Of a stretch of DNA of 46,969 nucleotides, positions 9,437 to 46,969 are shown piece after piece. The notes under the pieces were generated by a model that was given only the letters and a program-made list of their open reading frames with translations, searched no databases and had not been told where the DNA came from. Position 1 is the stretch's first letter; each line of letters starts with the position of its first letter. Source of the stretch: Chiloscyllium plagiosum. Taxonomy: Eukaryota. Location of the stretch: NCBI RefSeq assembly GCF_004010195.1, contig NW_025214593.1, positions 1-46,969 on the forward strand, given 5' to 3'. The position numbers were made by a program, and so were the translations under genes.

Positions 9437-9492
9437 GAACACGCAGTACCTTCAGTTAATGAATACACGTGTTTGGCAATACTGTATCAAGC

Positions 9493-20059: not shown

Positions 20060-21065
20060 AACAAAGAATAAAGAAATTTACAGCACAGGAAATGGCCCTT
20101 TGACCTTGCCAAACGTGCGATGATCGAGGTTCGATATCTAATTGTGATGCTTATTTTTCGAAGATCGTCATCTCTTTGCTCCGTGTCCCTTCATGCATCT
20201 TAAATGACGCTATCATTCCCTCCTCTCCCACCTCCATCAGCAAAGCGTTCCATGCACCCACCACCCTCTGCATAGAGAACTTGCCATGCATAGCTGCTCT
20301 AAACCTTTCCCCTCCACACTTTGAACTCTTGACACCTAGTAATTGAGATCTGCATTCTGGGAAAATGCTTCTTGCTGTCCACCCTTTCTAAAACTCATGA
20401 ATTTTTAGACCTCATTGGGTCTCTCCCCAAATTTCTTCTTTGCAATGAAAATAATTCTAAACCACCTCTCTTTTTACCTAGTTTACTCTACACCCGGTAA
20501 CATTCTGGGGAACATCCACTGCACACTCTCCAAAACATCCATATTTCCTTTTCGTAAGATGGCGACCAGAACGATATGCAGAATTCAAAATATGGTCGAA
20601 CAAAAGTCCCATGCAACCGTAACAGGACCTGCCAACCTTTGTACTCAATACCTTATCCAATATACGAAAGGATGCCATATGCCTTCTTGACCACTTTGCT
20701 GACCTGCGGTTCCACCTTCTGTGAATAATGGACCTGAACACTCAAGTCTCTCTGTATGTAACCTTTATCCAGGACTTTTCTAGTTATTGCATAGTTTGCT
20801 CTTGGATTGGATCTTTCAGAATGCCTCACCTCGCATTTACTTGCATTCAACTATACCTGACATTTTGTTTTTGCCATCTGTCCAATCCATCTATATTCAG
20901 CTGTATTTTCGATAGTCCACTTCACAAATTGCTACTCCACCAATCTTAGTGTCATCTGCAACTTGCTAATTTGGCAACAAATGCATTCCTCCAATTATTT
21001 ATATATATCACAAACAACAGTGGTCCCAGCATGGATGGTTATGGAACACCGAAGGTCACAGGTCT
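20060..21065 (-). mobile_element. Decayed CR1 LINE RT and 3' end
   Basis: Antisense motifs GVP..SMLGPLLFVIYIN, NASKCEV.H, VVKKAYGIL, LECAVDVPQN-like remnant; tail aacaaagaataaagaa. Confidence 0.85.
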
Positions 21066-22564
21066 CCACCTGAACGGATCTGTTACCAATGTTCTAGCGA
21101 AGAGGATAAATAAGGTGGTCAGTAGGACTTTAAATTTCTGAGTTGTGGGGAGGGGAAAGTGAAAGCGACAGGGAGTATGGAGGTAAATGGAAAGATAAGC
21201 AGCAGGATAGCATGTCTGCAGGTGGATTTAAGCTTGAGGCAGACTCGGAATGCAGCAAAAAGGAAGGATAACTTAAGACATCTTATGATTTCCAATATCT
21301 CTAATGATAAGAAAGTTAGCATTAAGGCACTTTACCTGAATGCTCGTAGCATTCGTAACATAGTAGATGAACGAACGGCACAGATCACCGTGAATGATTA
21401 TGATGTGGTAGGCATCACAGAAACGTGGTTGCAGGGGTTTCAGGACTGGCAGTTAATCATTCAAGTATTTACAACTTATCGAAAAGACAGGGAGGTGGGC
21501 ATGGGGGAGGGGTGGCCTTGTTAGTTAAGGACAAAATTAAATCTATAGCACTGAATGACATGAGGTCGGTTGATGTGAATTATGTGTGGGTGGAATTGAG
21601 GAACCACAATGTCAAAAAAAAACATAGTGGGAGTTATGTACAGACCTCCTAACAGTGGTCAGGACCAGGGATGCAACATGTACCGGGAAATAGACAAGGC
21701 ATGTCAGAAAGGCAAGGTCCTGGTGATCATGGGGAACTTCAATATGCAGGTCGACTGGGTAAATAATGTTGCCAGTGGATCCAAAGAAAGGAAATTCATG
21801 GAATGCTTCCAGGATGGCTTTTTGGAACAGATTGTCATGGAGCCCACAAGGCTGCAGGCTATTCTGGACTTCGTGCTATGTAATGAACCAGACTTTATAA
21901 ATGATCTTAAAGTAAGGGAACACTTAGGAAGCATCGATCATAATTTGGTAAAGTTCAGTCTGCAGTTTGAAAGAGAGAAGGCAAAATCGGATGTACTGGT
22001 GTTGAGGGCTTAGACAGCCATGGCTGACAAAGGAAGTCAGGAAGTCTATCAAAGAAAAAGAGAGAGCCTATGAAGTGGCCAAGAGCAATGGGAAATCAGA
22101 AGATTGGGAAGGCTGCAAAACCAAACAGAGGATAACAAAGAGAGAAATAAGAAAGGAGAGCATCAAATATGAAGGTAGGCTAGCCAGTAATATTAGAAAT
22201 GATAGTAAAATATTCCTTCAATACATAAGAAACAAACGACAGGCAAAAGTCGACATTGGGACACTTCAAACTGATGCTGGAAGGCTAGTGATGGGAGATA
22301 AGGAAATAGCTGGAGAACTTAATTGATATTTTGCGTCAGTCTCCACAGTGGATGGCATGAGTAATATCCCAACAATTAAAGGGAGTCAGGGGGCTGAGTT
22401 GAGTATGGTTGCCATTACAAAAGAGAAAGTGCTAGAAAAGCTAAAAGGTCTTAAAATTGATAAATCTCCTGGGTCCGATGGGCAACATCCTAGAGTTCTG
22501 AGGGAGTTGGCTGAGGAAATAGCGGAGGCGTTGGTTGAGATCTTTCAAAAGTCACTGGAGTCAG
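21060..22564 (+). mobile_element. CR1 LINE: ORF1 esterase C-terminus and ORF2 APE endonuclease, frameshifted, 3'-truncated at the satellite
   Basis: GLHLNGSVTNVLAKRINKVV (SGNH-like ORF1 end); LYLNARSIRN, YDVVGITETWL, VGVMYRPPN, VIMGNFN, ILDFVLCN, SIDHNLV, KSPGSDGQHPRVLREL. Stops abruptly at IFQKSLES, before the RT domain. Confidence 0.93.
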
Positions 22565-22567
22565 AGA

Positions 22568-25500
22568 TACGCAACACCAGGTTATAGATTGAAATCACAC
22601 AACATCAGGTTATAGTCCGAACTCACACAGCATCAGGTTATAGTCTGAAATCACATAACATCAGGTTAGAGTCCGAAATTACGCAACACCAGGTTATAGA
22701 TTGAAATCACACAACATCAGGTTATAGTCCGAACTCACACAGCATCAGGTTATAGTCTGAAATCACATAACATCAGGTTAGAGTCCGAAATTACGCAACA
22801 CCAGGTTATAGATTGAAATCACACAACATCAGGTTATAGTCCGAACTCACACAGCATCAGGTTATAGTCTGAAATCACATAACATCAGGTTAGAGTCCGA
22901 AATTACGCAACACCAGGTTATAGATTGAAATCACACAACATCAGGTTATAGTCCGAACTCACACAGCATCAGGTTATAGTCTGAAATCACATAACATCAG
23001 GTTAGAGTCCGAAATTACGCAACACCAGGTTATAGATTGAAATCACACAACATCAGGTTATAGTCCGAACTCACACAGCATCAGGTTATAGTCTGAAATC
23101 ACATAACATCAGGTTAGAGTCCGAAATTACGCAACACCAGGTTATAGATTGAAATCACACAACATCAGGTTATAGTCCGAACTCACACAGCATCAGGTTA
23201 TAGTCTGAAATCACATAACATCAGGTTAGAGTCCGAAATTACGCAACACCAGGTTATAGATTGAAATCACACAACATCAGGTTATAGTCCGAACTCACAC
23301 AGCATCAGGTTATAGTCTGAAATCACATAACATCAGGTTAGAGTCCGAAATTACGCAACACCAGGTTATAGATTGAAATCACACAACATCAGGTTATAGT
23401 CCGAACTCACACAGCATCAGGTTATAGTCTGAAATCACATAACATCAGGTTAGAGTCCGAAATTACGCAACACCAGGTTATAGATTGAAATCACACAACA
23501 TCAGGTTATAGTCCGAACTCACACAGCATCAGGTTATAGTCTGAAATCACATAACATCAGGTTAGAGTCCGAAATTACGCAACACCAGGTTATAGATTGA
23601 AATCACACAACATCAGGTTATAGTCCGAACTCACACAGCATCAGGTTATAGTCTGAAATCACATAACATCAGGTTAGAGTCCGAAATTACGCAACACCAG
23701 GTTATAGATTGAAATCACACAACATCAGGTTATAGTCCGAACTCACACAGCATCAGGTTATAGTCTGAAATCACATAACATCAGGTTAGAGTCCGAAATT
23801 ACGCAACACCAGGTTATAGATTGAAATCACACAACATCAGGTTATAGTCCGAACTCACACAGCATCAGGTTATAGTCTGAAATCACATAACATCAGGTTA
23901 GAGTCCGAAATTACGCAACACCAGGTTATAGATTGAAATCACACAACATCAGGTTATAGTCCGAACTCACACAGCATCAGGTTATAGTCTGAAATCACAT
24001 AACATCAGGTTAGAGTCCGAAATTACGCAACACCAGGTTATAGATTGAAATCACACAACATCAGGTTATAGTCCGAACTCACACAGCATCAGGTTATAGT
24101 CTGAAATCACATAACATCAGGTTAGAGTCCGAAATTACGCAACACCAGGTTATAGATTGAAATCACACAACATCAGGTTATAGTCCGAACTCACACAGCA
24201 TCAGGTTATAGTCTGAAATCACATAACATCAGGTTAGAGTCCGAAATTACGCAACACCAGGTTATAGATTGAAATCACACAACATCAGGTTATAGTCCGA
24301 ACTCACACAGCATCAGGTTATAGTCTGAAATCACATAACATCAGGTTAGAGTCCGAAATTACGCAACACCAGGTTATAGATTGAAATCACACAACATCAG
24401 GTTATAGTCCGAACTCACACAGCATCAGGTTATAGTCTGAAATCACATAACATCAGGTTAGAGTCCGAAATTACGCAACACCAGGTTATAGATTGAAATC
24501 ACACAACATCAGGTTATAGTCCGAACTCACACAGCATCAGGTTATAGTCTGAAATCACATAACATCAGGTTAGAGTCCGAAATTACGCAACACCAGGTTA
24601 TAGATTGAAATCACACAACATCAGGTTATAGTCCGAACTCACACAGCATCAGGTTATAGTCTGAAATCACATAACATCAGGTTAGAGTCCGAAATTACGC
24701 AACACCAGGTTATAGATTGAAATCACACAACATCAGGTTATAGTCCGAACTCACACAGCATCAGGTTATAGTCTGAAATCACATAACATCAGGTTAGAGT
24801 CCGAAATTACGCAACACCAGGTTATAGATTGAAATCACACAACATCAGGTTATAGTCCGAACTCACACAGCATCAGGTTATAGTCTGAAATCACATAACA
24901 TCAGGTTAGAGTCCGAAATTACGCAACACCAGGTTATAGATTGAAATCACACAACATCAGGTTATAGTCCGAACTCACACAGCATCAGGTTATAGTCTGA
25001 AATCACATAACATCAGGTTAGAGTCCGAAATTACGCAACACCAGGTTATAGATTGAAATCACACAACATCAGGTTATAGTCCGAACTCACACAGCATCAG
25101 GTTATAGTCTGAAATCACATAACATCAGGTTAGAGTCCGAAATTACGCAACACCAGGTTATAGATTGAAATCACACAACATCAGGTTATAGTCCGAACTC
25201 ACACAGCATCAGGTTATAGTCTGAAATCACATAACATCAGGTTAGAGTCCGAAATTACGCAACACCAGGTTATAGATTGAAATCACACAACATCAGGTTA
25301 TAGTCCGAACTCACACAGCATCAGGTTATAGTCTGAAATCACATAACATCAGGTTAGAGTCCGAAATTACGCAACACCAGGTTATAGATTGAAATCACAC
25401 AACATCAGGTTATAGTCCGAACTCACACAGCATCAGGTTATAGTCTGAAATCACATAACATCAGGTTAGAGTCCGAAATTACGCAACACCAGGTTATAGA

Positions 25501-28500
25501 TTGAAATCACACAACATCAGGTTATAGTCCGAACTCACACAGCATCAGGTTATAGTCTGAAATCACATAACATCAGGTTAGAGTCCGAAATTACGCAACA
25601 CCAGGTTATAGATTGAAATCACACAACATCAGGTTATAGTCCGAACTCACACAGCATCAGGTTATAGTCTGAAATCACATAACATCAGGTTAGAGTCCGA
25701 AATTACGCAACACCAGGTTATAGATTGAAATCACACAACATCAGGTTATAGTCCGAACTCACACAGCATCAGGTTATAGTCTGAAATCACATAACATCAG
25801 GTTAGAGTCCGAAATTACGCAACACCAGGTTATAGATTGAAATCACACAACATCAGGTTATAGTCCGAACTCACACAGCATCAGGTTATAGTCTGAAATC
25901 ACATAACATCAGGTTAGAGTCCGAAATTACGCAACACCAGGTTATAGATTGAAATCACACAACATCAGGTTATAGTCCGAACTCACACAGCATCAGGTTA
26001 TAGTCTGAAATCACATAACATCAGGTTAGAGTCCGAAATTACGCAACACCAGGTTATAGATTGAAATCACACAACATCAGGTTATAGTCCGAACTCACAC
26101 AGCATCAGGTTATAGTCTGAAATCACATAACATCAGGTTAGAGTCCGAAATTACGCAACACCAGGTTATAGATTGAAATCACACAACATCAGGTTATAGT
26201 CCGAACTCACACAGCATCAGGTTATAGTCTGAAATCACATAACATCAGGTTAGAGTCCGAAATTACGCAACACCAGGTTATAGATTGAAATCACACAACA
26301 TCAGGTTATAGTCCGAACTCACACAGCATCAGGTTATAGTCTGAAATCACATAACATCAGGTTAGAGTCCGAAATTACGCAACACCAGGTTATAGATTGA
26401 AATCACACAACATCAGGTTATAGTCCGAACTCACACAGCATCAGGTTATAGTCTGAAATCACATAACATCAGGTTAGAGTCCGAAATTACGCAACACCAG
26501 GTTATAGATTGAAATCACACAACATCAGGTTATAGTCCGAACTCACACAGCATCAGGTTATAGTCTGAAATCACATAACATCAGGTTAGAGTCCGAAATT
26601 ACGCAACACCAGGTTATAGATTGAAATCACACAACATCAGGTTATAGTCCGAACTCACACAGCATCAGGTTATAGTCTGAAATCACATAACATCAGGTTA
26701 GAGTCCGAAATTACGCAACACCAGGTTATAGATTGAAATCACACAACATCAGGTTATAGTCCGAACTCACACAGCATCAGGTTATAGTCTGAAATCACAT
26801 AACATCAGGTTAGAGTCCGAAATTACGCAACACCAGGTTATAGATTGAAATCACACAACATCAGGTTATAGTCCGAACTCACACAGCATCAGGTTATAGT
26901 CTGAAATCACATAACATCAGGTTAGAGTCCGAAATTACGCAACACCAGGTTATAGATTGAAATCACACAACATCAGGTTATAGTCCGAACTCACACAGCA
27001 TCAGGTTATAGTCTGAAATCACATAACATCAGGTTAGAGTCCGAAATTACGCAACACCAGGTTATAGATTGAAATCACACAACATCAGGTTATAGTCCGA
27101 ACTCACACAGCATCAGGTTATAGTCTGAAATCACATAACATCAGGTTAGAGTCCGAAATTACGCAACACCAGGTTATAGATTGAAATCACACAACATCAG
27201 GTTATAGTCCGAACTCACACAGCATCAGGTTATAGTCTGAAATCACATAACATCAGGTTAGAGTCCGAAATTACGCAACACCAGGTTATAGATTGAAATC
27301 ACACAACATCAGGTTATAGTCCGAACTCACACAGCATCAGGTTATAGTCTGAAATCACATAACATCAGGTTAGAGTCCGAAATTACGCAACACCAGGTTA
27401 TAGATTGAAATCACACAACATCAGGTTATAGTCCGAACTCACACAGCATCAGGTTATAGTCTGAAATCACATAACATCAGGTTAGAGTCCGAAATTACGC
27501 AACACCAGGTTATAGATTGAAATCACACAACATCAGGTTATAGTCCGAACTCACACAGCATCAGGTTATAGTCTGAAATCACATAACATCAGGTTAGAGT
27601 CCGAAATTACGCAACACCAGGTTATAGATTGAAATCACACAACATCAGGTTATAGTCCGAACTCACACAGCATCAGGTTATAGTCTGAAATCACATAACA
27701 TCAGGTTAGAGTCCGAAATTACGCAACACCAGGTTATAGATTGAAATCACACAACATCAGGTTATAGTCCGAACTCACACAGCATCAGGTTATAGTCTGA
27801 AATCACATAACATCAGGTTAGAGTCCGAAATTACGCAACACCAGGTTATAGATTGAAATCACACAACATCAGGTTATAGTCCGAACTCACACAGCATCAG
27901 GTTATAGTCTGAAATCACATAACATCAGGTTAGAGTCCGAAATTACGCAACACCAGGTTATAGATTGAAATCACACAACATCAGGTTATAGTCCGAACTC
28001 ACACAGCATCAGGTTATAGTCTGAAATCACATAACATCAGGTTAGAGTCCGAAATTACGCAACACCAGGTTATAGATTGAAATCACACAACATCAGGTTA
28101 TAGTCCGAACTCACACAGCATCAGGTTATAGTCTGAAATCACATAACATCAGGTTAGAGTCCGAAATTACGCAACACCAGGTTATAGATTGAAATCACAC
28201 AACATCAGGTTATAGTCCGAACTCACACAGCATCAGGTTATAGTCTGAAATCACATAACATCAGGTTAGAGTCCGAAATTACGCAACACCAGGTTATAGA
28301 TTGAAATCACACAACATCAGGTTATAGTCCGAACTCACACAGCATCAGGTTATAGTCTGAAATCACATAACATCAGGTTAGAGTCCGAAATTACGCAACA
28401 CCAGGTTATAGATTGAAATCACACAACATCAGGTTATAGTCCGAACTCACACAGCATCAGGTTATAGTCTGAAATCACATAACATCAGGTTAGAGTCCGA

Positions 28501-31500
28501 AATTACGCAACACCAGGTTATAGATTGAAATCACACAACATCAGGTTATAGTCCGAACTCACACAGCATCAGGTTATAGTCTGAAATCACATAACATCAG
28601 GTTAGAGTCCGAAATTACGCAACACCAGGTTATAGATTGAAATCACACAACATCAGGTTATAGTCCGAACTCACACAGCATCAGGTTATAGTCTGAAATC
28701 ACATAACATCAGGTTAGAGTCCGAAATTACGCAACACCAGGTTATAGATTGAAATCACACAACATCAGGTTATAGTCCGAACTCACACAGCATCAGGTTA
28801 TAGTCTGAAATCACATAACATCAGGTTAGAGTCCGAAATTACGCAACACCAGGTTATAGATTGAAATCACACAACATCAGGTTATAGTCCGAACTCACAC
28901 AGCATCAGGTTATAGTCTGAAATCACATAACATCAGGTTAGAGTCCGAAATTACGCAACACCAGGTTATAGATTGAAATCACACAACATCAGGTTATAGT
29001 CCGAACTCACACAGCATCAGGTTATAGTCTGAAATCACATAACATCAGGTTAGAGTCCGAAATTACGCAACACCAGGTTATAGATTGAAATCACACAACA
29101 TCAGGTTATAGTCCGAACTCACACAGCATCAGGTTATAGTCTGAAATCACATAACATCAGGTTAGAGTCCGAAATTACGCAACACCAGGTTATAGATTGA
29201 AATCACACAACATCAGGTTATAGTCCGAACTCACACAGCATCAGGTTATAGTCTGAAATCACATAACATCAGGTTAGAGTCCGAAATTACGCAACACCAG
29301 GTTATAGATTGAAATCACACAACATCAGGTTATAGTCCGAACTCACACAGCATCAGGTTATAGTCTGAAATCACATAACATCAGGTTAGAGTCCGAAATT
29401 ACGCAACACCAGGTTATAGATTGAAATCACACAACATCAGGTTATAGTCCGAACTCACACAGCATCAGGTTATAGTCTGAAATCACATAACATCAGGTTA
29501 GAGTCCGAAATTACGCAACACCAGGTTATAGATTGAAATCACACAACATCAGGTTATAGTCCGAACTCACACAGCATCAGGTTATAGTCTGAAATCACAT
29601 AACATCAGGTTAGAGTCCGAAATTACGCAACACCAGGTTATAGATTGAAATCACACAACATCAGGTTATAGTCCGAACTCACACAGCATCAGGTTATAGT
29701 CTGAAATCACATAACATCAGGTTAGAGTCCGAAATTACGCAACACCAGGTTATAGATTGAAATCACACAACATCAGGTTATAGTCCGAACTCACACAGCA
29801 TCAGGTTATAGTCTGAAATCACATAACATCAGGTTAGAGTCCGAAATTACGCAACACCAGGTTATAGATTGAAATCACACAACATCAGGTTATAGTCCGA
29901 ACTCACACAGCATCAGGTTATAGTCTGAAATCACATAACATCAGGTTAGAGTCCGAAATTACGCAACACCAGGTTATAGATTGAAATCACACAACATCAG
30001 GTTATAGTCCGAACTCACACAGCATCAGGTTATAGTCTGAAATCACATAACATCAGGTTAGAGTCCGAAATTACGCAACACCAGGTTATAGATTGAAATC
30101 ACACAACATCAGGTTATAGTCCGAACTCACACAGCATCAGGTTATAGTCTGAAATCACATAACATCAGGTTAGAGTCCGAAATTACGCAACACCAGGTTA
30201 TAGATTGAAATCACACAACATCAGGTTATAGTCCGAACTCACACAGCATCAGGTTATAGTCTGAAATCACATAACATCAGGTTAGAGTCCGAAATTACGC
30301 AACACCAGGTTATAGATTGAAATCACACAACATCAGGTTATAGTCCGAACTCACACAGCATCAGGTTATAGTCTGAAATCACATAACATCAGGTTAGAGT
30401 CCGAAATTACGCAACACCAGGTTATAGATTGAAATCACACAACATCAGGTTATAGTCCGAACTCACACAGCATCAGGTTATAGTCTGAAATCACATAACA
30501 TCAGGTTAGAGTCCGAAATTACGCAACACCAGGTTATAGATTGAAATCACACAACATCAGGTTATAGTCCGAACTCACACAGCATCAGGTTATAGTCTGA
30601 AATCACATAACATCAGGTTAGAGTCCGAAATTACGCAACACCAGGTTATAGATTGAAATCACACAACATCAGGTTATAGTCCGAACTCACACAGCATCAG
30701 GTTATAGTCTGAAATCACATAACATCAGGTTAGAGTCCGAAATTACGCAACACCAGGTTATAGATTGAAATCACACAACATCAGGTTATAGTCCGAACTC
30801 ACACAGCATCAGGTTATAGTCTGAAATCACATAACATCAGGTTAGAGTCCGAAATTACGCAACACCAGGTTATAGATTGAAATCACACAACATCAGGTTA
30901 TAGTCCGAACTCACACAGCATCAGGTTATAGTCTGAAATCACATAACATCAGGTTAGAGTCCGAAATTACGCAACACCAGGTTATAGATTGAAATCACAC
31001 AACATCAGGTTATAGTCCGAACTCACACAGCATCAGGTTATAGTCTGAAATCACATAACATCAGGTTAGAGTCCGAAATTACGCAACACCAGGTTATAGA
31101 TTGAAATCACACAACATCAGGTTATAGTCCGAACTCACACAGCATCAGGTTATAGTCTGAAATCACATAACATCAGGTTAGAGTCCGAAATTACGCAACA
31201 CCAGGTTATAGATTGAAATCACACAACATCAGGTTATAGTCCGAACTCACACAGCATCAGGTTATAGTCTGAAATCACATAACATCAGGTTAGAGTCCGA
31301 AATTACGCAACACCAGGTTATAGATTGAAATCACACAACATCAGGTTATAGTCCGAACTCACACAGCATCAGGTTATAGTCTGAAATCACATAACATCAG
31401 GTTAGAGTCCGAAATTACGCAACACCAGGTTATAGATTGAAATCACACAACATCAGGTTATAGTCCGAACTCACACAGCATCAGGTTATAGTCTGAAATC

Positions 31501-34500
31501 ACATAACATCAGGTTAGAGTCCGAAATTACGCAACACCAGGTTATAGATTGAAATCACACAACATCAGGTTATAGTCCGAACTCACACAGCATCAGGTTA
31601 TAGTCTGAAATCACATAACATCAGGTTAGAGTCCGAAATTACGCAACACCAGGTTATAGATTGAAATCACACAACATCAGGTTATAGTCCGAACTCACAC
31701 AGCATCAGGTTATAGTCTGAAATCACATAACATCAGGTTAGAGTCCGAAATTACGCAACACCAGGTTATAGATTGAAATCACACAACATCAGGTTATAGT
31801 CCGAACTCACACAGCATCAGGTTATAGTCTGAAATCACATAACATCAGGTTAGAGTCCGAAATTACGCAACACCAGGTTATAGATTGAAATCACACAACA
31901 TCAGGTTATAGTCCGAACTCACACAGCATCAGGTTATAGTCTGAAATCACATAACATCAGGTTAGAGTCCGAAATTACGCAACACCAGGTTATAGATTGA
32001 AATCACACAACATCAGGTTATAGTCCGAACTCACACAGCATCAGGTTATAGTCTGAAATCACATAACATCAGGTTAGAGTCCGAAATTACGCAACACCAG
32101 GTTATAGATTGAAATCACACAACATCAGGTTATAGTCCGAACTCACACAGCATCAGGTTATAGTCTGAAATCACATAACATCAGGTTAGAGTCCGAAATT
32201 ACGCAACACCAGGTTATAGATTGAAATCACACAACATCAGGTTATAGTCCGAACTCACACAGCATCAGGTTATAGTCTGAAATCACATAACATCAGGTTA
32301 GAGTCCGAAATTACGCAACACCAGGTTATAGATTGAAATCACACAACATCAGGTTATAGTCCGAACTCACACAGCATCAGGTTATAGTCTGAAATCACAT
32401 AACATCAGGTTAGAGTCCGAAATTACGCAACACCAGGTTATAGATTGAAATCACACAACATCAGGTTATAGTCCGAACTCACACAGCATCAGGTTATAGT
32501 CTGAAATCACATAACATCAGGTTAGAGTCCGAAATTACGCAACACCAGGTTATAGATTGAAATCACACAACATCAGGTTATAGTCCGAACTCACACAGCA
32601 TCAGGTTATAGTCTGAAATCACATAACATCAGGTTAGAGTCCGAAATTACGCAACACCAGGTTATAGATTGAAATCACACAACATCAGGTTATAGTCCGA
32701 ACTCACACAGCATCAGGTTATAGTCTGAAATCACATAACATCAGGTTAGAGTCCGAAATTACGCAACACCAGGTTATAGATTGAAATCACACAACATCAG
32801 GTTATAGTCCGAACTCACACAGCATCAGGTTATAGTCTGAAATCACATAACATCAGGTTAGAGTCCGAAATTACGCAACACCAGGTTATAGATTGAAATC
32901 ACACAACATCAGGTTATAGTCCGAACTCACACAGCATCAGGTTATAGTCTGAAATCACATAACATCAGGTTAGAGTCCGAAATTACGCAACACCAGGTTA
33001 TAGATTGAAATCACACAACATCAGGTTATAGTCCGAACTCACACAGCATCAGGTTATAGTCTGAAATCACATAACATCAGGTTAGAGTCCGAAATTACGC
33101 AACACCAGGTTATAGATTGAAATCACACAACATCAGGTTATAGTCCGAACTCACACAGCATCAGGTTATAGTCTGAAATCACATAACATCAGGTTAGAGT
33201 CCGAAATTACGCAACACCAGGTTATAGATTGAAATCACACAACATCAGGTTATAGTCCGAACTCACACAGCATCAGGTTATAGTCTGAAATCACATAACA
33301 TCAGGTTAGAGTCCGAAATTACGCAACACCAGGTTATAGATTGAAATCACACAACATCAGGTTATAGTCCGAACTCACACAGCATCAGGTTATAGTCTGA
33401 AATCACATAACATCAGGTTAGAGTCCGAAATTACGCAACACCAGGTTATAGATTGAAATCACACAACATCAGGTTATAGTCCGAACTCACACAGCATCAG
33501 GTTATAGTCTGAAATCACATAACATCAGGTTAGAGTCCGAAATTACGCAACACCAGGTTATAGATTGAAATCACACAACATCAGGTTATAGTCCGAACTC
33601 ACACAGCATCAGGTTATAGTCTGAAATCACATAACATCAGGTTAGAGTCCGAAATTACGCAACACCAGGTTATAGATTGAAATCACACAACATCAGGTTA
33701 TAGTCCGAACTCACACAGCATCAGGTTATAGTCTGAAATCACATAACATCAGGTTAGAGTCCGAAATTACGCAACACCAGGTTATAGATTGAAATCACAC
33801 AACATCAGGTTATAGTCCGAACTCACACAGCATCAGGTTATAGTCTGAAATCACATAACATCAGGTTAGAGTCCGAAATTACGCAACACCAGGTTATAGA
33901 TTGAAATCACACAACATCAGGTTATAGTCCGAACTCACACAGCATCAGGTTATAGTCTGAAATCACATAACATCAGGTTAGAGTCCGAAATTACGCAACA
34001 CCAGGTTATAGATTGAAATCACACAACATCAGGTTATAGTCCGAACTCACACAGCATCAGGTTATAGTCTGAAATCACATAACATCAGGTTAGAGTCCGA
34101 AATTACGCAACACCAGGTTATAGATTGAAATCACACAACATCAGGTTATAGTCCGAACTCACACAGCATCAGGTTATAGTCTGAAATCACATAACATCAG
34201 GTTAGAGTCCGAAATTACGCAACACCAGGTTATAGATTGAAATCACACAACATCAGGTTATAGTCCGAACTCACACAGCATCAGGTTATAGTCTGAAATC
34301 ACATAACATCAGGTTAGAGTCCGAAATTACGCAACACCAGGTTATAGATTGAAATCACACAACATCAGGTTATAGTCCGAACTCACACAGCATCAGGTTA
34401 TAGTCTGAAATCACATAACATCAGGTTAGAGTCCGAAATTACGCAACACCAGGTTATAGATTGAAATCACACAACATCAGGTTATAGTCCGAACTCACAC

Positions 34501-37500
34501 AGCATCAGGTTATAGTCTGAAATCACATAACATCAGGTTAGAGTCCGAAATTACGCAACACCAGGTTATAGATTGAAATCACACAACATCAGGTTATAGT
34601 CCGAACTCACACAGCATCAGGTTATAGTCTGAAATCACATAACATCAGGTTAGAGTCCGAAATTACGCAACACCAGGTTATAGATTGAAATCACACAACA
34701 TCAGGTTATAGTCCGAACTCACACAGCATCAGGTTATAGTCTGAAATCACATAACATCAGGTTAGAGTCCGAAATTACGCAACACCAGGTTATAGATTGA
34801 AATCACACAACATCAGGTTATAGTCCGAACTCACACAGCATCAGGTTATAGTCTGAAATCACATAACATCAGGTTAGAGTCCGAAATTACGCAACACCAG
34901 GTTATAGATTGAAATCACACAACATCAGGTTATAGTCCGAACTCACACAGCATCAGGTTATAGTCTGAAATCACATAACATCAGGTTAGAGTCCGAAATT
35001 ACGCAACACCAGGTTATAGATTGAAATCACACAACATCAGGTTATAGTCCGAACTCACACAGCATCAGGTTATAGTCTGAAATCACATAACATCAGGTTA
35101 GAGTCCGAAATTACGCAACACCAGGTTATAGATTGAAATCACACAACATCAGGTTATAGTCCGAACTCACACAGCATCAGGTTATAGTCTGAAATCACAT
35201 AACATCAGGTTAGAGTCCGAAATTACGCAACACCAGGTTATAGATTGAAATCACACAACATCAGGTTATAGTCCGAACTCACACAGCATCAGGTTATAGT
35301 CTGAAATCACATAACATCAGGTTAGAGTCCGAAATTACGCAACACCAGGTTATAGATTGAAATCACACAACATCAGGTTATAGTCCGAACTCACACAGCA
35401 TCAGGTTATAGTCTGAAATCACATAACATCAGGTTAGAGTCCGAAATTACGCAACACCAGGTTATAGATTGAAATCACACAACATCAGGTTATAGTCCGA
35501 ACTCACACAGCATCAGGTTATAGTCTGAAATCACATAACATCAGGTTAGAGTCCGAAATTACGCAACACCAGGTTATAGATTGAAATCACACAACATCAG
35601 GTTATAGTCCGAACTCACACAGCATCAGGTTATAGTCTGAAATCACATAACATCAGGTTAGAGTCCGAAATTACGCAACACCAGGTTATAGATTGAAATC
35701 ACACAACATCAGGTTATAGTCCGAACTCACACAGCATCAGGTTATAGTCTGAAATCACATAACATCAGGTTAGAGTCCGAAATTACGCAACACCAGGTTA
35801 TAGATTGAAATCACACAACATCAGGTTATAGTCCGAACTCACACAGCATCAGGTTATAGTCTGAAATCACATAACATCAGGTTAGAGTCCGAAATTACGC
35901 AACACCAGGTTATAGATTGAAATCACACAACATCAGGTTATAGTCCGAACTCACACAGCATCAGGTTATAGTCTGAAATCACATAACATCAGGTTAGAGT
36001 CCGAAATTACGCAACACCAGGTTATAGATTGAAATCACACAACATCAGGTTATAGTCCGAACTCACACAGCATCAGGTTATAGTCTGAAATCACATAACA
36101 TCAGGTTAGAGTCCGAAATTACGCAACACCAGGTTATAGATTGAAATCACACAACATCAGGTTATAGTCCGAACTCACACAGCATCAGGTTATAGTCTGA
36201 AATCACATAACATCAGGTTAGAGTCCGAAATTACGCAACACCAGGTTATAGATTGAAATCACACAACATCAGGTTATAGTCCGAACTCACACAGCATCAG
36301 GTTATAGTCTGAAATCACATAACATCAGGTTAGAGTCCGAAATTACGCAACACCAGGTTATAGATTGAAATCACACAACATCAGGTTATAGTCCGAACTC
36401 ACACAGCATCAGGTTATAGTCTGAAATCACATAACATCAGGTTAGAGTCCGAAATTACGCAACACCAGGTTATAGATTGAAATCACACAACATCAGGTTA
36501 TAGTCCGAACTCACACAGCATCAGGTTATAGTCTGAAATCACATAACATCAGGTTAGAGTCCGAAATTACGCAACACCAGGTTATAGATTGAAATCACAC
36601 AACATCAGGTTATAGTCCGAACTCACACAGCATCAGGTTATAGTCTGAAATCACATAACATCAGGTTAGAGTCCGAAATTACGCAACACCAGGTTATAGA
36701 TTGAAATCACACAACATCAGGTTATAGTCCGAACTCACACAGCATCAGGTTATAGTCTGAAATCACATAACATCAGGTTAGAGTCCGAAATTACGCAACA
36801 CCAGGTTATAGATTGAAATCACACAACATCAGGTTATAGTCCGAACTCACACAGCATCAGGTTATAGTCTGAAATCACATAACATCAGGTTAGAGTCCGA
36901 AATTACGCAACACCAGGTTATAGATTGAAATCACACAACATCAGGTTATAGTCCGAACTCACACAGCATCAGGTTATAGTCTGAAATCACATAACATCAG
37001 GTTAGAGTCCGAAATTACGCAACACCAGGTTATAGATTGAAATCACACAACATCAGGTTATAGTCCGAACTCACACAGCATCAGGTTATAGTCTGAAATC
37101 ACATAACATCAGGTTAGAGTCCGAAATTACGCAACACCAGGTTATAGATTGAAATCACACAACATCAGGTTATAGTCCGAACTCACACAGCATCAGGTTA
37201 TAGTCTGAAATCACATAACATCAGGTTAGAGTCCGAAATTACGCAACACCAGGTTATAGATTGAAATCACACAACATCAGGTTATAGTCCGAACTCACAC
37301 AGCATCAGGTTATAGTCTGAAATCACATAACATCAGGTTAGAGTCCGAAATTACGCAACACCAGGTTATAGATTGAAATCACACAACATCAGGTTATAGT
37401 CCGAACTCACACAGCATCAGGTTATAGTCTGAAATCACATAACATCAGGTTAGAGTCCGAAATTACGCAACACCAGGTTATAGATTGAAATCACACAACA

Positions 37501-40500
37501 TCAGGTTATAGTCCGAACTCACACAGCATCAGGTTATAGTCTGAAATCACATAACATCAGGTTAGAGTCCGAAATTACGCAACACCAGGTTATAGATTGA
37601 AATCACACAACATCAGGTTATAGTCCGAACTCACACAGCATCAGGTTATAGTCTGAAATCACATAACATCAGGTTAGAGTCCGAAATTACGCAACACCAG
37701 GTTATAGATTGAAATCACACAACATCAGGTTATAGTCCGAACTCACACAGCATCAGGTTATAGTCTGAAATCACATAACATCAGGTTAGAGTCCGAAATT
37801 ACGCAACACCAGGTTATAGATTGAAATCACACAACATCAGGTTATAGTCCGAACTCACACAGCATCAGGTTATAGTCTGAAATCACATAACATCAGGTTA
37901 GAGTCCGAAATTACGCAACACCAGGTTATAGATTGAAATCACACAACATCAGGTTATAGTCCGAACTCACACAGCATCAGGTTATAGTCTGAAATCACAT
38001 AACATCAGGTTAGAGTCCGAAATTACGCAACACCAGGTTATAGATTGAAATCACACAACATCAGGTTATAGTCCGAACTCACACAGCATCAGGTTATAGT
38101 CTGAAATCACATAACATCAGGTTAGAGTCCGAAATTACGCAACACCAGGTTATAGATTGAAATCACACAACATCAGGTTATAGTCCGAACTCACACAGCA
38201 TCAGGTTATAGTCTGAAATCACATAACATCAGGTTAGAGTCCGAAATTACGCAACACCAGGTTATAGATTGAAATCACACAACATCAGGTTATAGTCCGA
38301 ACTCACACAGCATCAGGTTATAGTCTGAAATCACATAACATCAGGTTAGAGTCCGAAATTACGCAACACCAGGTTATAGATTGAAATCACACAACATCAG
38401 GTTATAGTCCGAACTCACACAGCATCAGGTTATAGTCTGAAATCACATAACATCAGGTTAGAGTCCGAAATTACGCAACACCAGGTTATAGATTGAAATC
38501 ACACAACATCAGGTTATAGTCCGAACTCACACAGCATCAGGTTATAGTCTGAAATCACATAACATCAGGTTAGAGTCCGAAATTACGCAACACCAGGTTA
38601 TAGATTGAAATCACACAACATCAGGTTATAGTCCGAACTCACACAGCATCAGGTTATAGTCTGAAATCACATAACATCAGGTTAGAGTCCGAAATTACGC
38701 AACACCAGGTTATAGATTGAAATCACACAACATCAGGTTATAGTCCGAACTCACACAGCATCAGGTTATAGTCTGAAATCACATAACATCAGGTTAGAGT
38801 CCGAAATTACGCAACACCAGGTTATAGATTGAAATCACACAACATCAGGTTATAGTCCGAACTCACACAGCATCAGGTTATAGTCTGAAATCACATAACA
38901 TCAGGTTAGAGTCCGAAATTACGCAACACCAGGTTATAGATTGAAATCACACAACATCAGGTTATAGTCCGAACTCACACAGCATCAGGTTATAGTCTGA
39001 AATCACATAACATCAGGTTAGAGTCCGAAATTACGCAACACCAGGTTATAGATTGAAATCACACAACATCAGGTTATAGTCCGAACTCACACAGCATCAG
39101 GTTATAGTCTGAAATCACATAACATCAGGTTAGAGTCCGAAATTACGCAACACCAGGTTATAGATTGAAATCACACAACATCAGGTTATAGTCCGAACTC
39201 ACACAGCATCAGGTTATAGTCTGAAATCACATAACATCAGGTTAGAGTCCGAAATTACGCAACACCAGGTTATAGATTGAAATCACACAACATCAGGTTA
39301 TAGTCCGAACTCACACAGCATCAGGTTATAGTCTGAAATCACATAACATCAGGTTAGAGTCCGAAATTACGCAACACCAGGTTATAGATTGAAATCACAC
39401 AACATCAGGTTATAGTCCGAACTCACACAGCATCAGGTTATAGTCTGAAATCACATAACATCAGGTTAGAGTCCGAAATTACGCAACACCAGGTTATAGA
39501 TTGAAATCACACAACATCAGGTTATAGTCCGAACTCACACAGCATCAGGTTATAGTCTGAAATCACATAACATCAGGTTAGAGTCCGAAATTACGCAACA
39601 CCAGGTTATAGATTGAAATCACACAACATCAGGTTATAGTCCGAACTCACACAGCATCAGGTTATAGTCTGAAATCACATAACATCAGGTTAGAGTCCGA
39701 AATTACGCAACACCAGGTTATAGATTGAAATCACACAACATCAGGTTATAGTCCGAACTCACACAGCATCAGGTTATAGTCTGAAATCACATAACATCAG
39801 GTTAGAGTCCGAAATTACGCAACACCAGGTTATAGATTGAAATCACACAACATCAGGTTATAGTCCGAACTCACACAGCATCAGGTTATAGTCTGAAATC
39901 ACATAACATCAGGTTAGAGTCCGAAATTACGCAACACCAGGTTATAGATTGAAATCACACAACATCAGGTTATAGTCCGAACTCACACAGCATCAGGTTA
40001 TAGTCTGAAATCACATAACATCAGGTTAGAGTCCGAAATTACGCAACACCAGGTTATAGATTGAAATCACACAACATCAGGTTATAGTCCGAACTCACAC
40101 AGCATCAGGTTATAGTCTGAAATCACATAACATCAGGTTAGAGTCCGAAATTACGCAACACCAGGTTATAGATTGAAATCACACAACATCAGGTTATAGT
40201 CCGAACTCACACAGCATCAGGTTATAGTCTGAAATCACATAACATCAGGTTAGAGTCCGAAATTACGCAACACCAGGTTATAGATTGAAATCACACAACA
40301 TCAGGTTATAGTCCGAACTCACACAGCATCAGGTTATAGTCTGAAATCACATAACATCAGGTTAGAGTCCGAAATTACGCAACACCAGGTTATAGATTGA
40401 AATCACACAACATCAGGTTATAGTCCGAACTCACACAGCATCAGGTTATAGTCTGAAATCACATAACATCAGGTTAGAGTCCGAAATTACGCAACACCAG

Positions 40501-41546
40501 GTTATAGATTGAAATCACACAACATCAGGTTATAGTCCGAACTCACACAGCATCAGGTTATAGTCTGAAATCACATAACATCAGGTTAGAGTCCGAAATT
40601 ACGCAACACCAGGTTATAGATTGAAATCACACAACATCAGGTTATAGTCCGAACTCACACAGCATCAGGTTATAGTCTGAAATCACATAACATCAGGTTA
40701 GAGTCCGAAATTACGCAACACCAGGTTATAGATTGAAATCACACAACATCAGGTTATAGTCCGAACTCACACAGCATCAGGTTATAGTCTGAAATCACAT
40801 AACATCAGGTTAGAGTCCGAAATTACGCAACACCAGGTTATAGATTGAAATCACACAACATCAGGTTATAGTCCGAACTCACACAGCATCAGGTTATAGT
40901 CTGAAATCACATAACATCAGGTTAGAGTCCGAAATTACGCAACACCAGGTTATAGATTGAAATCACACAACATCAGGTTATAGTCCGAACTCACACAGCA
41001 TCAGGTTATAGTCTGAAATCACATAACATCAGGTTAGAGTCCGAAATTACGCAACACCAGGTTATAGATTGAAATCACACAACATCAGGTTATAGTCCGA
41101 ACTCACACAGCATCAGGTTATAGTCTGAAATCACATAACATCAGGTTAGAGTCCGAAATTACGCAACACCAGGTTATAGATTGAAATCACACAACATCAG
41201 GTTATAGTCCGAACTCACACAGCATCAGGTTATAGTCTGAAATCACATAACATCAGGTTAGAGTCCGAAATTACGCAACACCAGGTTATAGATTGAAATC
41301 ACACAACATCAGGTTATAGTCCGAACTCACACAGCATCAGGTTATAGTCTGAAATCACATAACATCAGGTTAGAGTCCGAAATTACGCAACACCAGGTTA
41401 TAGATTGAAATCACACAACATCAGGTTATAGTCCGAACTCACACAGCATCAGGTTATAGTCTGAAATCACATAACATCAGGTTAGAGTCCGAAATTACGC
41501 AACACCAGGTTATAGATTGAAATCACACAACATCAGGTTATAGTCC
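22568..41546. repeat. Satellite higher-order repeat: ~169 copies of a 112-bp unit (4 x 28-bp monomers)
   Basis: Unit gaaattacgcaacaccaggttatagatt / gaaatcacacaacatcaggttatagtcc / gaactcacacagcatcaggttatagtct / gaaatcacataacatcaggttagagtcc. The same monomer starts at 22591 and 41519 (169 x 112). No variants seen by eye. Confidence 0.97.
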
Positions 41547-43964
41547 GAAATCACACAACTCCAGGTTATAGACCAAAATCACACAGCATCTGGTTATAAT
41601 CCGAAATCACACAACACCAGGTTATACTCCGAAATCACACAACTCCAGGTTATAGTCGGAAATCACACAACGCCACGTTATAGTCCGAAATCACACAACA
41701 CCAGGCTGTAGTCCGAAAGCACACGACTCCAGGTTAGAATCAGAAATCATGCAACATCAGGTTATATACAAAATCACACAACACCAGGTTATAGTCCAAA
41801 ATCACACAACATCAGGTGATAGTCCGAACTCACACAACACCAGGTGATAGTCCGAAATCACACAAAATCAGGTTATAGTCCAAAATCACACAACACCAGG
41901 TGATAGTCCGAAATCACACAAAATCAGGTTATACTCCAAAATCACACAACACCAGCTTATAGTCCGATATCACACAACATCAGGTTATCGTCCGAAATCA
42001 CACAACTCCAGGTTATACTCCAAAATCACACAACACCAGCTTATAGTCCGAAATCACACAACACCAGGTTATAGTCCGAAATCACACAACACCAGGTTAT
42101 AGGCCGAAATCACAGAACACCAGGTTATAGTCCGAAATCAAGAACACCAGGTTATAGAGCGAAATTGCACAACATCAGGTTATAGTCCGAAATCACACAG
42201 CGTCACATTATAATCCGAAATCAGACAACACCATGTTATAGTCCGAAATCTTACATCTCCAGTTTATAGTCCGAAATCACATAATATCAGGTTATAGTCC
42301 GAAATCACAGAACACCAGGTTATAGTCCGAACTCGCACAACACCAGGTTATAAACCGAAATCACACAGCACCAGGTTATAGTCCAAAATCACACAACACC
42401 AGGTTTTGGTCCGAAATCACACAACACCAGGTTATAGTCCAAAATCACACAACATCAGGTTATAGTCCAACATCACACAACATCATGTTGTGGTCCGAAA
42501 TCTCACAACACCAGCTTATAGTCCGATATCACACAGCACCAGGTTATAGTCCGAAATCACAGAGCACCAGGTTATAGTCCGAAATCACATAATATCAGGT
42601 TATAGTCCCAAAACACACAACACAAGGTAATAGTCTGAAATCACAGAACACCAGGTTATAGAGCGAAATCACACAACACCTTGTTATAGTCTGAAATCTT
42701 ACATCTCCAGCTTATAGTCCGAAATCACATAATATCAGGTTATAGTCCAAAATCACACAACACCAGGTTATACTCCGAAATCACACAACGCCACGTTATG
42801 CACCGAATTCACACAACACCAGGCTGTAGTCCGAAAGCACACACCAGGTTATTATCCGAAATCACACAACATCAGGTTATAGTCTGAAATCACACATCAG
42901 GTTATAGTCTGAAATCACATAACTTCAGGTTAAAGTCTGAAATCATGCAACACCAGGTTATAGTCCGAAATCACACAACTCCAGGTTATAGTCCAAAATC
43001 ACACACATCAGGTGATTGTCCGAAATCACACAAAATCAGGTTATACTCCGAAAGCACATAACACCAGCTTATAGTCCGATATCACACANNNNNNNNNNNN
43101 NNNNNNNNNNNNNNNNNNNNNNNNNNNNNNNNNNNNNNNNNNNNNNNNNNNNNNNNNNNNNNNNNNNNNNNNNNNNNNNNNNNNNNNNNNNNNNNNNNNN
43201 NNNNNNNNNNNNNNNNNNNNNNNNNNNNNGAAATCACACAGCACCAGGTTATAGTCCGAAATCACACAACACCAGGTTATAGTCCGATATCACACAACAC
43301 CAGATTGTAGTCCGAAATCACGCAACACAAGATTATAGTCCAAAATCACACAAACCAGGTTATAGTCCAAAATCACACAGCACCAGGCAATAGTCTGAAA
43401 TAACACATCAGGTTATTCTCCGAAATCACACAATACCAGGTTATAGTCCGATATCACACAACACCAGGTTGTGGACTGAAATCACACAACATCAGGTTAT
43501 AGTCCGAAATTACACAACACCAGGTTATAGTCCGATATCACACAACACCAGGTTGTGGACTGAAATCACACAACATCAGGTTATAGTCCGAAATCACACA
43601 ACACCAGGTTATAGTCCGAAATCACACAACTCCAGGTTATAATGTGAAATCACACAACATCCGGTTATAGTCTAAAATCACACAACACCAGGTTATAGTC
43701 CAAAATCATACAACTCGAGGTTATAATCTGAAATCACACAACACCAGGTTATAGTCCGAAATCACACAACTCCAGGTTATAATGTGTAATCACACAACAT
43801 CCGGTTATAGTCCAAAATCACACATCACCAGGTTATAGTCCGAAATCACACAACTCCAGGTTATAGTCTGAAATCACACAACTCCAGGTTATAATGTGAA
43901 ATCACACAACACCAGTTATATTCCGAAATCACACAACATCATGTTATAGCCCGAAATCACACAA
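41547..43964. repeat. Diverged monomeric 28-bp satellite (consensus gaaatcacacaacaccaggttatagtcc)
   Basis: About 80 sequenced monomers with scattered substitutions and occasional 1-3 nt deletions; contains N gap 43089-43229. Confidence 0.97.
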
Positions 43965-43967
43965 AAA

Positions 43968-45158
43968 AGCCGGGCAGTTTGCTACGAAAAATGATCTGTT
44001 TGAGGTTTGGCGCTTGTTTAAAGGCAAGCAGTGGAGGTGTGGGGAAGGTCTTGGTGAGGTGCTCATCCTCATTGATAATGTGTTGCTGGTCACGCAGAAC
44101 ATGGCGTAGTTTTTCAGCTCCTGGGAAATACTGAACAACGTTGTACCCTGACGGTTGTACCCTGAGGGTTGTACCCTGTCGGTTGCAGCACGGGCCTGTC
44201 TCCTGAGGAGGTCATTGCGGTTCCTTGCTGTGGCACGTCAGAACTGGTGGTCGATGAGTTGAGCATCGTACCCTGTTCTTATGAGGGCATCCCTGATCAC
44301 TTACCGGTGCCTGTCACATTCCTCCTCATCTGAGCAGATCTGGTGTATGCGTAGGGCTTGTCCATAGGGAATGGCTGTTTTAAAATGTTTTGGGTGGAAG
44401 CTGGAGAAGTGTAGCATTGTGAGGTTGTCTGTGGGTTTGTGGGAGAGTGTGGTGCTGAGGTGTCCATCCTTAATGGAGATGCATGTGTCTAAGAATGAGA
44501 CAGACAGTCGAGAGTAGTCCATGGTGAGTTTGATGGTGGGATGAAACTTGTTGATGTCACTGTGTAGTTTTATCAGTGACTCCTCGCCATGGGTCCAGAG
44601 GAAGAAAATGTACCTGGTGTACAATGTTGGTTGGAGATCCTGCATAGAGAAGAAATCTTGTTCGAACCTGTGCATAAAAATGTTGGCATATTGGGGTGCA
44701 AATTTGGTCCCCATGGCTGTTCCGTGTGTCTGGATGAAGAATTCATTGTCAAAGGTGAAGACATTATGATCGAGGATAAAGCGGATGAGTTGTAGGACGG
44801 TGTTTGGAGACTGGCAGTTGTTGGTGTTGAGTACTGAGGCTGTTGCCACGATGCCGTCATTGTGGGGGATACTGGTGTAGAGTGCGGAAACGTCCATTGT
44901 GAGGAGGAATGTTCCCGGTTCGACTGGTCCGTGGGTGCTGAGATTCTGTAAGAAATCCGTAGTGTCACAACAAAAGTTGGAGATCCCCTGTACAATAGGT
45001 TTCAAGATGCCTTCCACATAGCCGAAGAGATTCTCACATAGGGTCCCATTGCCCAACACGATGGGACGTCCTGGTGTATTGGCTTTGTGTATCTTTGGAA
45101 GGCAGTAGAAGACCTCCTACACGAGAAGTACTTCTTTATCCTGAGCGTAGGATGAGAG
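43968..45158 (-). mobile_element. Penelope-like element reverse transcriptase, inactive, 5'-truncated, inverted segment
   Basis: FYCLPKIHKANTPGRPIV, TMDVSALYTSIPH, QTHGTAMGTKFAPQYANIFM, VSFLD, HPKHFKTAIPYGQALR, LAFKQAPNLKQIIFRSKLP. Catalytic YIDD reduced to RYIFF; in-frame stops downstream of 44301. Confidence 0.95.
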
Positions 45159-45226
45159 TGTACAAAGTTAAAAATCACACTACACCAGGTTATAGTCCAA
45201 GAGGTTTAATTGGAAGCACAGTAGCT
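45159..45226 (-). mobile_element. Inverted Penelope pseudo-LTR 3' tail
   Basis: Reverse complement (agctactgtgcttccaattaaacctcttggactataacctggtgtagtgtgatttttaactttgtaca) matches 46258-46325. Confidence 0.92.
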
Positions 45227-45311
45227 CCATACAACCCTGTCACGGTAGGCGCTGCAAGACGTGTCAGATTGTGGACATAGATACCACTATTACACGTGGG
45301 GACACCTCCCA
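45227..45311 (+). mobile_element. Penelope linker (Zn-knuckle-like) preceding GIY-YIG endonuclease; remainder in N gap
   Basis: IQPCHGRRCKTCQIVDIDTTITRGDTS, the PC-x4-CxxC motif characteristic of the PLE RT-EN linker. Confidence 0.85.
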
Positions 45312-45834
45312 NNNNNNNNNNNNNNNNNNNNNNNNNNNNNNNNNNNNNNNNNNNNNNNNNNNNNNNNNNNNNNNNNNNNNNNNNNNNNNNNNNNNNNNNN
45401 NNNNNNNNNNNNNNNNNNNNNNNNNNNNNNNNNNNNNNNNNNNNNNNNNNNNNNNNNNNNNNNNNNNNNNNNNNNNNNNNNNNNNNNNNNNNNNNNNNNN
45501 NNNNNNNNNNNNNNNNNNNNNNNNNNNNNNNNNNNNNNNNNNNNNNNNNNNNNNNNNNNNNNNNNNNNNNNNNNNNNNNNNNNNNNNNNNNNNNNNNNNN
45601 NNNNNNNNNNNNNNNNNNNNNNNNNNNNNNNNNNNNNNNNNNNNNNNNNNNNNNNNNNNNNNNNNNNNNNNNNNNNNNNNNNNNNNNNNNNNNNNNNNNN
45701 NNNNNNNNNNNNNNNNNNNNNNNNNNNNNNNNNNNNNNNNNNNNNNNNNNNNNNNNNNNNNNNNNNNNNNNNNNNNNNNNNNNNNNNNNNNNNNNNNNNN
45801 NNNNNNNNNNNNNNNNNNNNNNNNNNNNNNNNNN

Positions 45835-46324
45835 GGTGAATTTGTACTTGCAGAGTTACATTGCACTTTGCTCAAAAACTGCATACGTTCATGTAGAGCT
45901 CTGAGCTCAAAAACTGCATGAATGTATGTAAAACTCTGTATTTCACTTTTTAGATTGGAATCAATCTAAACATCAGGTCATAGACAGAGAACACAGGGGC
46001 CTAACACCTTCAACATATTGTCTAGCTATCACCATTGTTAACAGCTAACCCGAGAATGCAACTTTAAAAAAAGGGTTTTGTGATTTACACATGAAAGAAG
46101 TTAAACTATCACTGTATTCTAACAGATGAAAGGGTTAACAGACAATCAATTTTTCAATGTATAATTTCAGTTACATCACACTGTAAATTTTTGCTATAAA
46201 TTCTGTGTTACGATCGAGCCCTCCACAAACTGCCTGATGAAGGAGCGTCGCTCCGAAAGCTAGTGTGCTTCCAATTAAACCTGTTGGACTATAACCTGGT
46301 GTTGTGTGATTTTTAACTTTGTAC
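45835..46324 (+). mobile_element. Penelope pseudo-LTR / 3' region, copy 1
   Basis: Aligns with 46440-46887; ends with the hammerhead motif and ggactataacctggtgttgtgtgatttttaactttgtac. Confidence 0.9.
46231..46266 (+). ncRNA. Minimal hammerhead ribozyme motif in pLTR copy 1
   Basis: CTGATGA (46234-46240), stem II ggagc/gctcc, GAA-AGCT-A with palindromic helix III, then gtg. Stem I is poorly paired in this copy. Confidence 0.7.
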
Positions 46325-46887: not shown

Positions 46888-46969
46888 CAATTATCCAGAC
46901 ATAGACACAGATACTTGTAGTAGGCAACGTGCAGCAATTGCTCCGAGATTGCATGCAGGAGAGTTTCTT

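Follow-up and report, generated by a model that had tools for sequence, protein, structure and literature searches.

A 28-nt minisatellite at an inverted Penelope-like element insertion in Chiloscyllium plagiosum: a possible reverse transcriptase-made seed and a probable gap-filling loop

The window analysed here is the entire unplaced scaffold NW_025214593.1 of the Chiloscyllium plagiosum assembly GCF_004010195.1 (46,969 nucleotides; contig C101188 of the assembly, G000, which spans 3.56 Gb in 101,977 contigs). In it, an array of 28-nt repeats stands between a CR1-type long interspersed element (LINE) and a Penelope-like element (PLE). A first-pass annotation had proposed that the PLE reverse transcriptase (RT) copied a short RNA template repeatedly, in the manner of telomerase, onto a broken CR1 end. 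The account that we favour, with moderate confidence, is instead that of a single old minisatellite which was seeded by an RT restart, grew at the DNA level, and had 19 kb added in print by what is likely a gap-filling loop. Growth at the DNA level from one ancestor is highly probable; that the seed was made by the RT is somewhat better than an even call. An ordinary endonuclease-initiated insertion would have had its top strand primed near the proximal RT start; after copying about 28 nt the RT would have begun again, which would have given the inverted insertion a short tandem at its left end. Slippage and unequal exchange would then have enlarged and diversified the array to a few hundred copies, which a short-read assembly in all likelihood left as a gap and filled by looping. 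Telomerase-like synthesis on a break is unlikely, since there is no fixed register, no alignment region and no telomeric context, and the family is endonuclease (EN)-positive. The features on which the argument draws are as follows (ORF, open reading frame; UTR, untranslated region; LTR, long terminal repeat).

21061..22567, plus strand: CR1-type LINE ORF2 fragment with APE domain (Pfam; paralogues on contigs C49 and C101247)
22568..41549, plus strand: 112-bp (4 x 28) unit in 169 turns identical to the letter, probably looped in by gap filling
41549..43088, plus strand: 55 diverged 28-nt monomers, real satellite (segmentation)
43089..43229, no strand: assembly gap, 141 N
43230..43967, plus strand: 26 diverged monomers, the final one breaking off after 10 nt and followed by AAA
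43968..45131, minus strand: RT-to-thumb part of a probable Neptune-type PLE ORF, the inverted half of a 5'-inverted insertion
45158..45226, minus strand: short extra element-end copy, from the 28-nt segment to the edge of the hammerhead-like motif
45225..45311, plus strand: sense linker carrying the C-x4-C-xx-C motif found ahead of the GIY-YIG domain (comparison with family copies)
45312..45834, no strand: assembly gap, 523 N, the expected place of the endonuclease domain and a CA-rich UTR
45835..46326, plus strand: sense 3' end (pseudo-LTR) of the same insertion, with its stop close to the proximal RT start (88-95% identical to family copies)
46234..46258, plus strand: hammerhead-like core (CTGATGA, 5-bp stem, GAAA; sequence and fold, Rfam negative)
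46270..46288, plus strand: 6-bp hairpin (minimum-energy fold)
46286..46313, plus strand: source of the 28-nt monomer, sense strand (37,202 exact 25-nt cores in the assembly)
46324..46887, plus strand: another PLE 3' end, more diverged than the first, with CA-rich UTR (74-84% identical to family copies)

Tandem Repeats Finder reported a period of 28 with 733 copies at 22574-43088 and 26 copies at 43230-43964, as well as a period of 112 at 98%. Segmentation of 22594-43088 resolved 732 monomers, 676 of which are four variants (A, B, C and D, 169 each) in fixed order; only about 85 monomers of the window lie outside this exact loop. Period-112 identity is unbroken over 22568-41549, with zero variants in 18,982 bases, and the block adjoins monomers that are only about 90% like the consensus. 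Contig C26721 holds the 112-bp unit once, in the arrangement X-D-A-B-C-D-Y with a different preceding monomer, and equals the window for 398 exact bases (41408-41805) across the loop exit. Its two D copies share exactly 30 nt, a repeat that would create a 112-bp cycle for any assembler or gap filler using such overlaps. In three raw-read runs from other samples (1,934 Mb each), read depth on the unit was 6.9-11.3, an upper bound that includes related sequence, as against 46-92 expected for 169 copies. No read spanning a turn-to-turn joint was listed in these runs, where about 62 per run were expected. In three of four contig sets, position 22568 is crossed without a break by a unitig (depth 6-19) that reads B-C-D. 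Contig C48 has a second exact run (10.4 x 36 bp), separated by 17 bases from an N gap.

Taken together, these data make it very probable that 22568-41549, about 19 of the 21 kb of array, is a gap-filling loop artefact, the software origin of the loop being strongly suggested. It is correspondingly improbable that the block is real, that is, that rolling-circle amplification or unequal crossover very recently multiplied one 112-bp unit in the individual that was assembled. Such a burst would agree with the lack of N at either block end, and other samples cannot speak for that individual; yet the unit is exactly the cycle that the 30-nt repeat creates in an overlap graph, the block is free of variants, the other exact run also sits beside a gap, and none of the three read sets has the unit amplified. 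Some observations limit the case for an artefact. The read sets may come from other individuals or related species (the best run shared 0.44 of words), the window's private CR1 variants were seen in none of the four contig sets, which cannot test the assembled individual, and one of the four, X1, also lacks the 112-bp unit. Hundreds of perfect copies on a blunt CR1 end thus call for caution as probably software-made, and the object that remains is a transposon-derived satellite of a known general kind.

The array monomer is the reverse complement of PLE segment 46286-46313, just 3' of the hammerhead-like core, so the source and the complementary DNA (cDNA) polarity given in the first-pass annotation both hold. 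Outside the loop, 11,301 bases (about 400 monomers) are assembled in seven contigs, six of which consist of array only, are 1.1-2.0 kb long and may belong in the gap of the window's scaffold. In all eight array pieces the monomers outside the loop are 89-92% like the consensus. Twenty-six monomers with at least three differences or an indel are common to at least two of the eight pieces, which argues for one ancestry, an outcome that the first-pass annotation had itself named as refuting its proposal. Megablast and strict blastn among the array contigs returned no matches, and the case for shared ancestry is built on monomer sharing and the 398-base exact match. Shared variant blocks further show that segments several hundred bases long were duplicated within the array. 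Judged by these sequence comparisons, all 28-register arrays have a single ancestry. The array is classed as a transposon-derived minisatellite or satellite rather than among telomerase-type systems: its unit is homologous to a portion of a dispersed element, and blocks of variants have been duplicated at a higher order.

The consensus joint between monomers reads TCC-GA-AATCAC, with G in 230 and A in 128 of 364 monomers, and so departs from the seamless AA joint. Dispersed copies carrying the G variant also exist (472 matches), and all 15 inspected read ..TAGAAATCAC. Given these copies and the G-rich joint, the terminal redundancy that had been thought to allow realignment shrinks to 2 nt with an A source or 0 nt with a G source. 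The same copies rule out taking the joint G as proof of later mutation.

To the right of the array, the annotated antisense PLE ORF is indeed present on the minus strand, and it proves to be the inverted half of an ordinary 5'-inverted insertion. In all nine family copies fetched, the RT piece 43968-45131 continues, after about 10 bases, into the sequence that the window carries from 45225 onwards, which identifies 45225-46326 as the sense 3' part and 43968-45131 as its inverted partner. Between them, the extra element-end copy (45158..45226) begins near the proximal RT start site. Pfam RVT_1 matched the minus strand with E=1.8e-4, below the curated gathering cut-off, and a PDB sequence search with the RT piece gave no match. 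The C-x4-C-xx-C linker reads PCHGGRCKTC in family copies L083, L086 and L091; a CX2-5CxxC linker before GIY-YIG defines the Neptune type and also occurs in Nematis (PMC8557442). For L091, the GIY-YIG domain was recognised through the homologue P0012 (72% identical, Pfam PF01541 above cut-off), the endonuclease region of L091 itself having no Pfam or NCBIfam match. Named homologues of the PLE protein come from sharks. Linker and GIY-YIG domain together indicate an EN-positive, Neptune-type family, the clade being assigned from the linker motif alone, and not an EN-deficient, end-healing PLE.

The traits of EN-deficient telomeric PLEs (no endonuclease, confinement to chromosome ends, telomeric repeats) were not found in this family. 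Its ends are bimodal in 24 of 29 copies and the window insertion is inverted, as expected of PLEs with an optional 30-40 nt tail and inverted or partial-tandem structure. Left arms of its inverted insertions are routinely in cDNA polarity; the polarity of the array is therefore uninformative, and reiteration is not needed to account for it. In the first 13 Mb of contig C1, many element ends are paired in inverted orientation at about 80-430 bp from each other, with the tails pointing away.

We then consider the genome-wide distribution of the 28-nt segment, using exact patterns that miss diverged copies. A strict pattern for the 28-register joint gave 63 matches in seven contigs; relaxing it gave 272, of which 267 lie in the same seven contigs and five on chromosome-scale contigs. 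These five were rejected as support, since every one is a single copy of a variant with AAAATCAC immediately after the core and not a tandem; in one of them (L093), this placement gives an 8-nt direct repeat with a spacing of exactly 28 nt. A pattern for any register found 22 other duplicated-end loci among the 37,202 cores, of which 20 were fetched and two (C95812 and C101584) judged from the matched text. Periods in the 20 fetched loci range over 26-53, with 36 in seven, and the 28 register occurs at none of the 22, contrary to what a fixed template would give at independent loci. Independent short runs of the same segment do exist and mostly restart at the RT start site, in registers other than 28. 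Most duplicated-end loci hold two copies, and 2-4 or more head-to-tail copies occur; longer runs are 3 x 35 (C44), 4 x 36 (C5), at least 12 x 36 (C25544) and 15 cores x 36 including the exact run (C48). The 36-nt arrays of C25544 and C48 may be one locus or kin.

Several of these runs can be described individually. L072 (G000:C48:5750300-5750850) and L117 (G000:C25544) are independent 36-nt arrays attached directly to a hammerhead end, and in L117 the 36-nt units are interspersed with 84-nt units whose restart lies at the distal (long-tail) start site. Four 36-nt copies stand behind a long tail in L098 (G000:C5:34582900-34583030) and three 35-nt copies form L024/L073 (G000:C44:5199800-5199950), the flanks being fully assembled at both places.

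Single-copy ends, sampled non-randomly as the first 30 loci on contig C1 (29 counted, L041 being the same insertion as L040), fall into two clusters about 38 nt apart, at 7-10 nt (11/29) and 43-48 nt (13/29) outside the core. By analogy with PAc, which has two internal RT start sites and a 30-40 nt tail (PMC11167929), we propose that these clusters mark RT start sites. Among the duplicated ends, 15 of 20 loci have a second copy whose start is 6-11 nt outside the core, compared with 27% under a uniform null (p=1.2e-5), and the bias persists over distinct joints (10/14, p=7e-4). The stops of first copies, by contrast, are scattered over 0 to 21 nt beyond the core. If the RT aborts and restarts, the start should be fixed and the stop variable, as in these loci. 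We tentatively suggest, as a possibility short of an even chance, that the Neptune-type PLE RT sometimes aborts 26-53 nt past a fixed start and restarts there on the nascent cDNA, leaving at least two copies per insertion.

A number of observations weigh against this suggestion. Nested insertion also predicts a fixed start and seems to explain L011 and L020 (at least 2 of the 20 dimers). An imperfect short direct repeat could account for the nine 36-37-nt loci; once these are set aside, the bias falls to 6/11 (p=0.051), and both the uniform null and the 6-11 nt window were chosen after the data were seen. The satellite itself restarts 2-3 nt outside the core, which is not where restarts commonly occur. 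Finally, duplication of the segment (22/37,202) is not significantly commoner than that of a control segment spanning the hammerhead core (5 loci/14,732; p=0.29), and we discarded the idea of a duplication hot spot at the 28-nt segment on these figures. Short tandem duplications across the hammerhead core (L076-L081), several at an inverted-arm joint and one threefold (C9), are possibly RT back-jumps at a stall site.

The left flank bears on the claim of a broken end. The CR1-type ORF2 fragment, recognised via Pfam Exo_endo_phos_2, carries a deletion of ~167 bp at 22003/22004 relative to its paralogues. Comparison with the paralogues on C49 (95-96%) and C101247 (92-93%), which continue as CR1 past 22567, places the last CR1 base at 22567 and gives a blunt joint to the array. 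The CR1 thus does stop abruptly within ORF2, and its downstream part does not reappear to the right of the array, both as first reported. A CR1-to-array joint was not listed in any of the four contig sets, in a search whose positive control failed, so that absence is not proof. The left joint may mark a genuine boundary, of a deletion or of an insertion, or else the place at which a fill was merged. The claim of a broken end is left unsupported, as the putative end abuts the likely assembly loop and the joint is unconfirmed in other data, with a weak control. The segment 16567-22567 is multi-copy, occurring also on contig C49 (7.61-7.67 Mb, several copies in both orientations) and on C101247.

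The main rival to an RT-made seed is one that arose purely at the DNA level, slippage or end-joining having duplicated a genomic copy of the element end without the RT taking part. We hold this to be possible but rather unlikely. The control segment also duplicates at a similar rate, once threefold, although several of its duplications sit at inversion joints and may be RT-made too. The G of the consensus joint and the dispersed G-variant copies fit a genomic source, the five chromosomal AAAATCAC copies include in L093 a ready slippage substrate, and the multi-copy runs L024, L098 and L117 repeat joint variants in the way typical of DNA duplication. Against this rival, other dimers of the segment mostly restart at the RT start site, and the array lies, in cDNA polarity, directly against the internal start point of the inverted PLE half.

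Telomerase-style synthesis, in which the PLE RT realigned on a 28-nt template through many rounds and so extended a broken CR1 end, appears very improbable and is largely unsupported, with register, redundancy, EN status and ancestry all against it. Polarity and source fit it, as do the blunt end of a CR1 that continues in paralogues, the lack of a target-site duplication and the runs of 3, 4 and at least 12 copies at other loci. PLE RTs, moreover, share ancestry with TERT, and EN-deficient PLEs are described as priming at exposed ends (PMC3846280). However, the 28 register is missing from all 22 other duplicated ends, none of the five chromosomal look-alike joints is tandem, and the scatter of first-copy stops implies that no fixed template boundary exists. 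The redundancy is 0-2 nt, the family is EN-positive, the window contains no TTAGGG dimer, and a left-flank paralogue lies at 7.66 Mb of a 9.98-Mb contig. In addition, the array-side unitig passes 22568 in three contig sets, and no CR1-array contig is listed in any of the four.

The motif at 46234-46258, which we take to be hammerhead-like, combines a core motif and a 5-bp stem in sequence and predicted fold; Rfam on 43900-46969 gave two chance matches and no hammerhead family at E<=1. The annotated hairpin at the distal boundary (46270-46288) is present in the minimum-energy fold of all four stretches examined, but shuffled sequences fold as well as these (z -1.25 to +0.16). First-copy stops, as seen by a pattern blind to earlier ones, are spread over 0-21 nt, and a role of the hairpin as a template boundary is not supported. 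Five dispersed variant copies (L092-L096) lack the hairpin between core and hammerhead stem, which in L093 brings about the 8-nt direct repeat with its 28-nt spacing.

Among known mechanisms, L1 twin priming gives 5' inversions, and the window resembles its products in the order of flank, antisense segment starting beside the start of the sense segment, and few bases lost; it differs in the extra element-end restart between the two halves. EN-positive PLE insertions are described with partial tandems, an inverted 5'-truncated copy and a 30-40 bp tail (PMC8557442, PMC3846280), and the window likewise has a 5'-truncated sense copy with an inverted partner, in a family whose end clusters lie about 38 nt apart. 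The cysteine linker before GIY-YIG, of the Neptune/Nematis type, is shared as well, and the hammerhead-like motif in the pseudo-LTR may be. Whereas the tandems described in those two articles consist of whole or truncated copies, here it is 26-53 nt next to the start that repeat head to tail. PAc (Poseidon, green anole), for which target-primed reverse transcription has been reconstituted in vitro with two internal RT start sites, shares internal initiation downstream of the hammerhead, extension on both strands and cutting in its own pseudo-LTR, but belongs to another clade, and its main text reports no repeat addition or restart on product (PMC11167929).

Non-LTR retrozymes are reported as tandem repeats of PLE ends with the hammerhead within the unit (bioRxiv 10.64898/2026.07.22.740005). 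In both cases a PLE terminal sequence would seed a tandem repeat that is then amplified locally, and, going by that preprint, seeding by PLE ends is already known for the hammerhead-containing kind. The 28-nt unit, in contrast, lies wholly 3' of the hammerhead-like motif and excludes it, where every tandem unit of a retrozyme would contain it. Telomerase and DRT2 use a fixed template and a 5-nt alignment or primer-binding region over many rounds (PMC12039810). Head-to-tail cDNA copies of one RNA segment would be an outcome shared with them, but the boundaries at PLE ends vary (periods 26-53), the redundancy is 0-2 nt and most loci have two copies. Athena and Coprina, described as EN-deficient telomere-associated PLEs (PMC3846280, PMC8557442), have in common with the present family a PLE RT and cDNA attached to a DNA 3' end, and unlike it have no GIY-YIG domain, tens of thousands of dispersed copies being seen here without telomeric repeat.

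The genome-wide result worth keeping is that most duplicated element ends begin anew at the RT start site. Should this be the work of the enzyme, it would connect telomerase repeat addition with PLE target-primed reverse transcription in a way open to testing, amount to a crude repeat-addition activity in the sister lineage of telomerase, and recurrently give rise to minisatellites (arrays of 28, 35 and 36 nt in one genome). An assay with an active PLE enzyme has already been published (PMC11167929). Searches of the open-access literature turned up no account of PLE ends carrying such short restart repeats, a weak indication of novelty.

Elsewhere in the window, a 500-bp unit is present in two tandem copies at 14685-15683 (94% identical). 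A palindrome of ~197 bp (92% arms) lies inside another CR1 copy at 18842-19038, and related pieces occur at 9488-9681 and 10252-10481.

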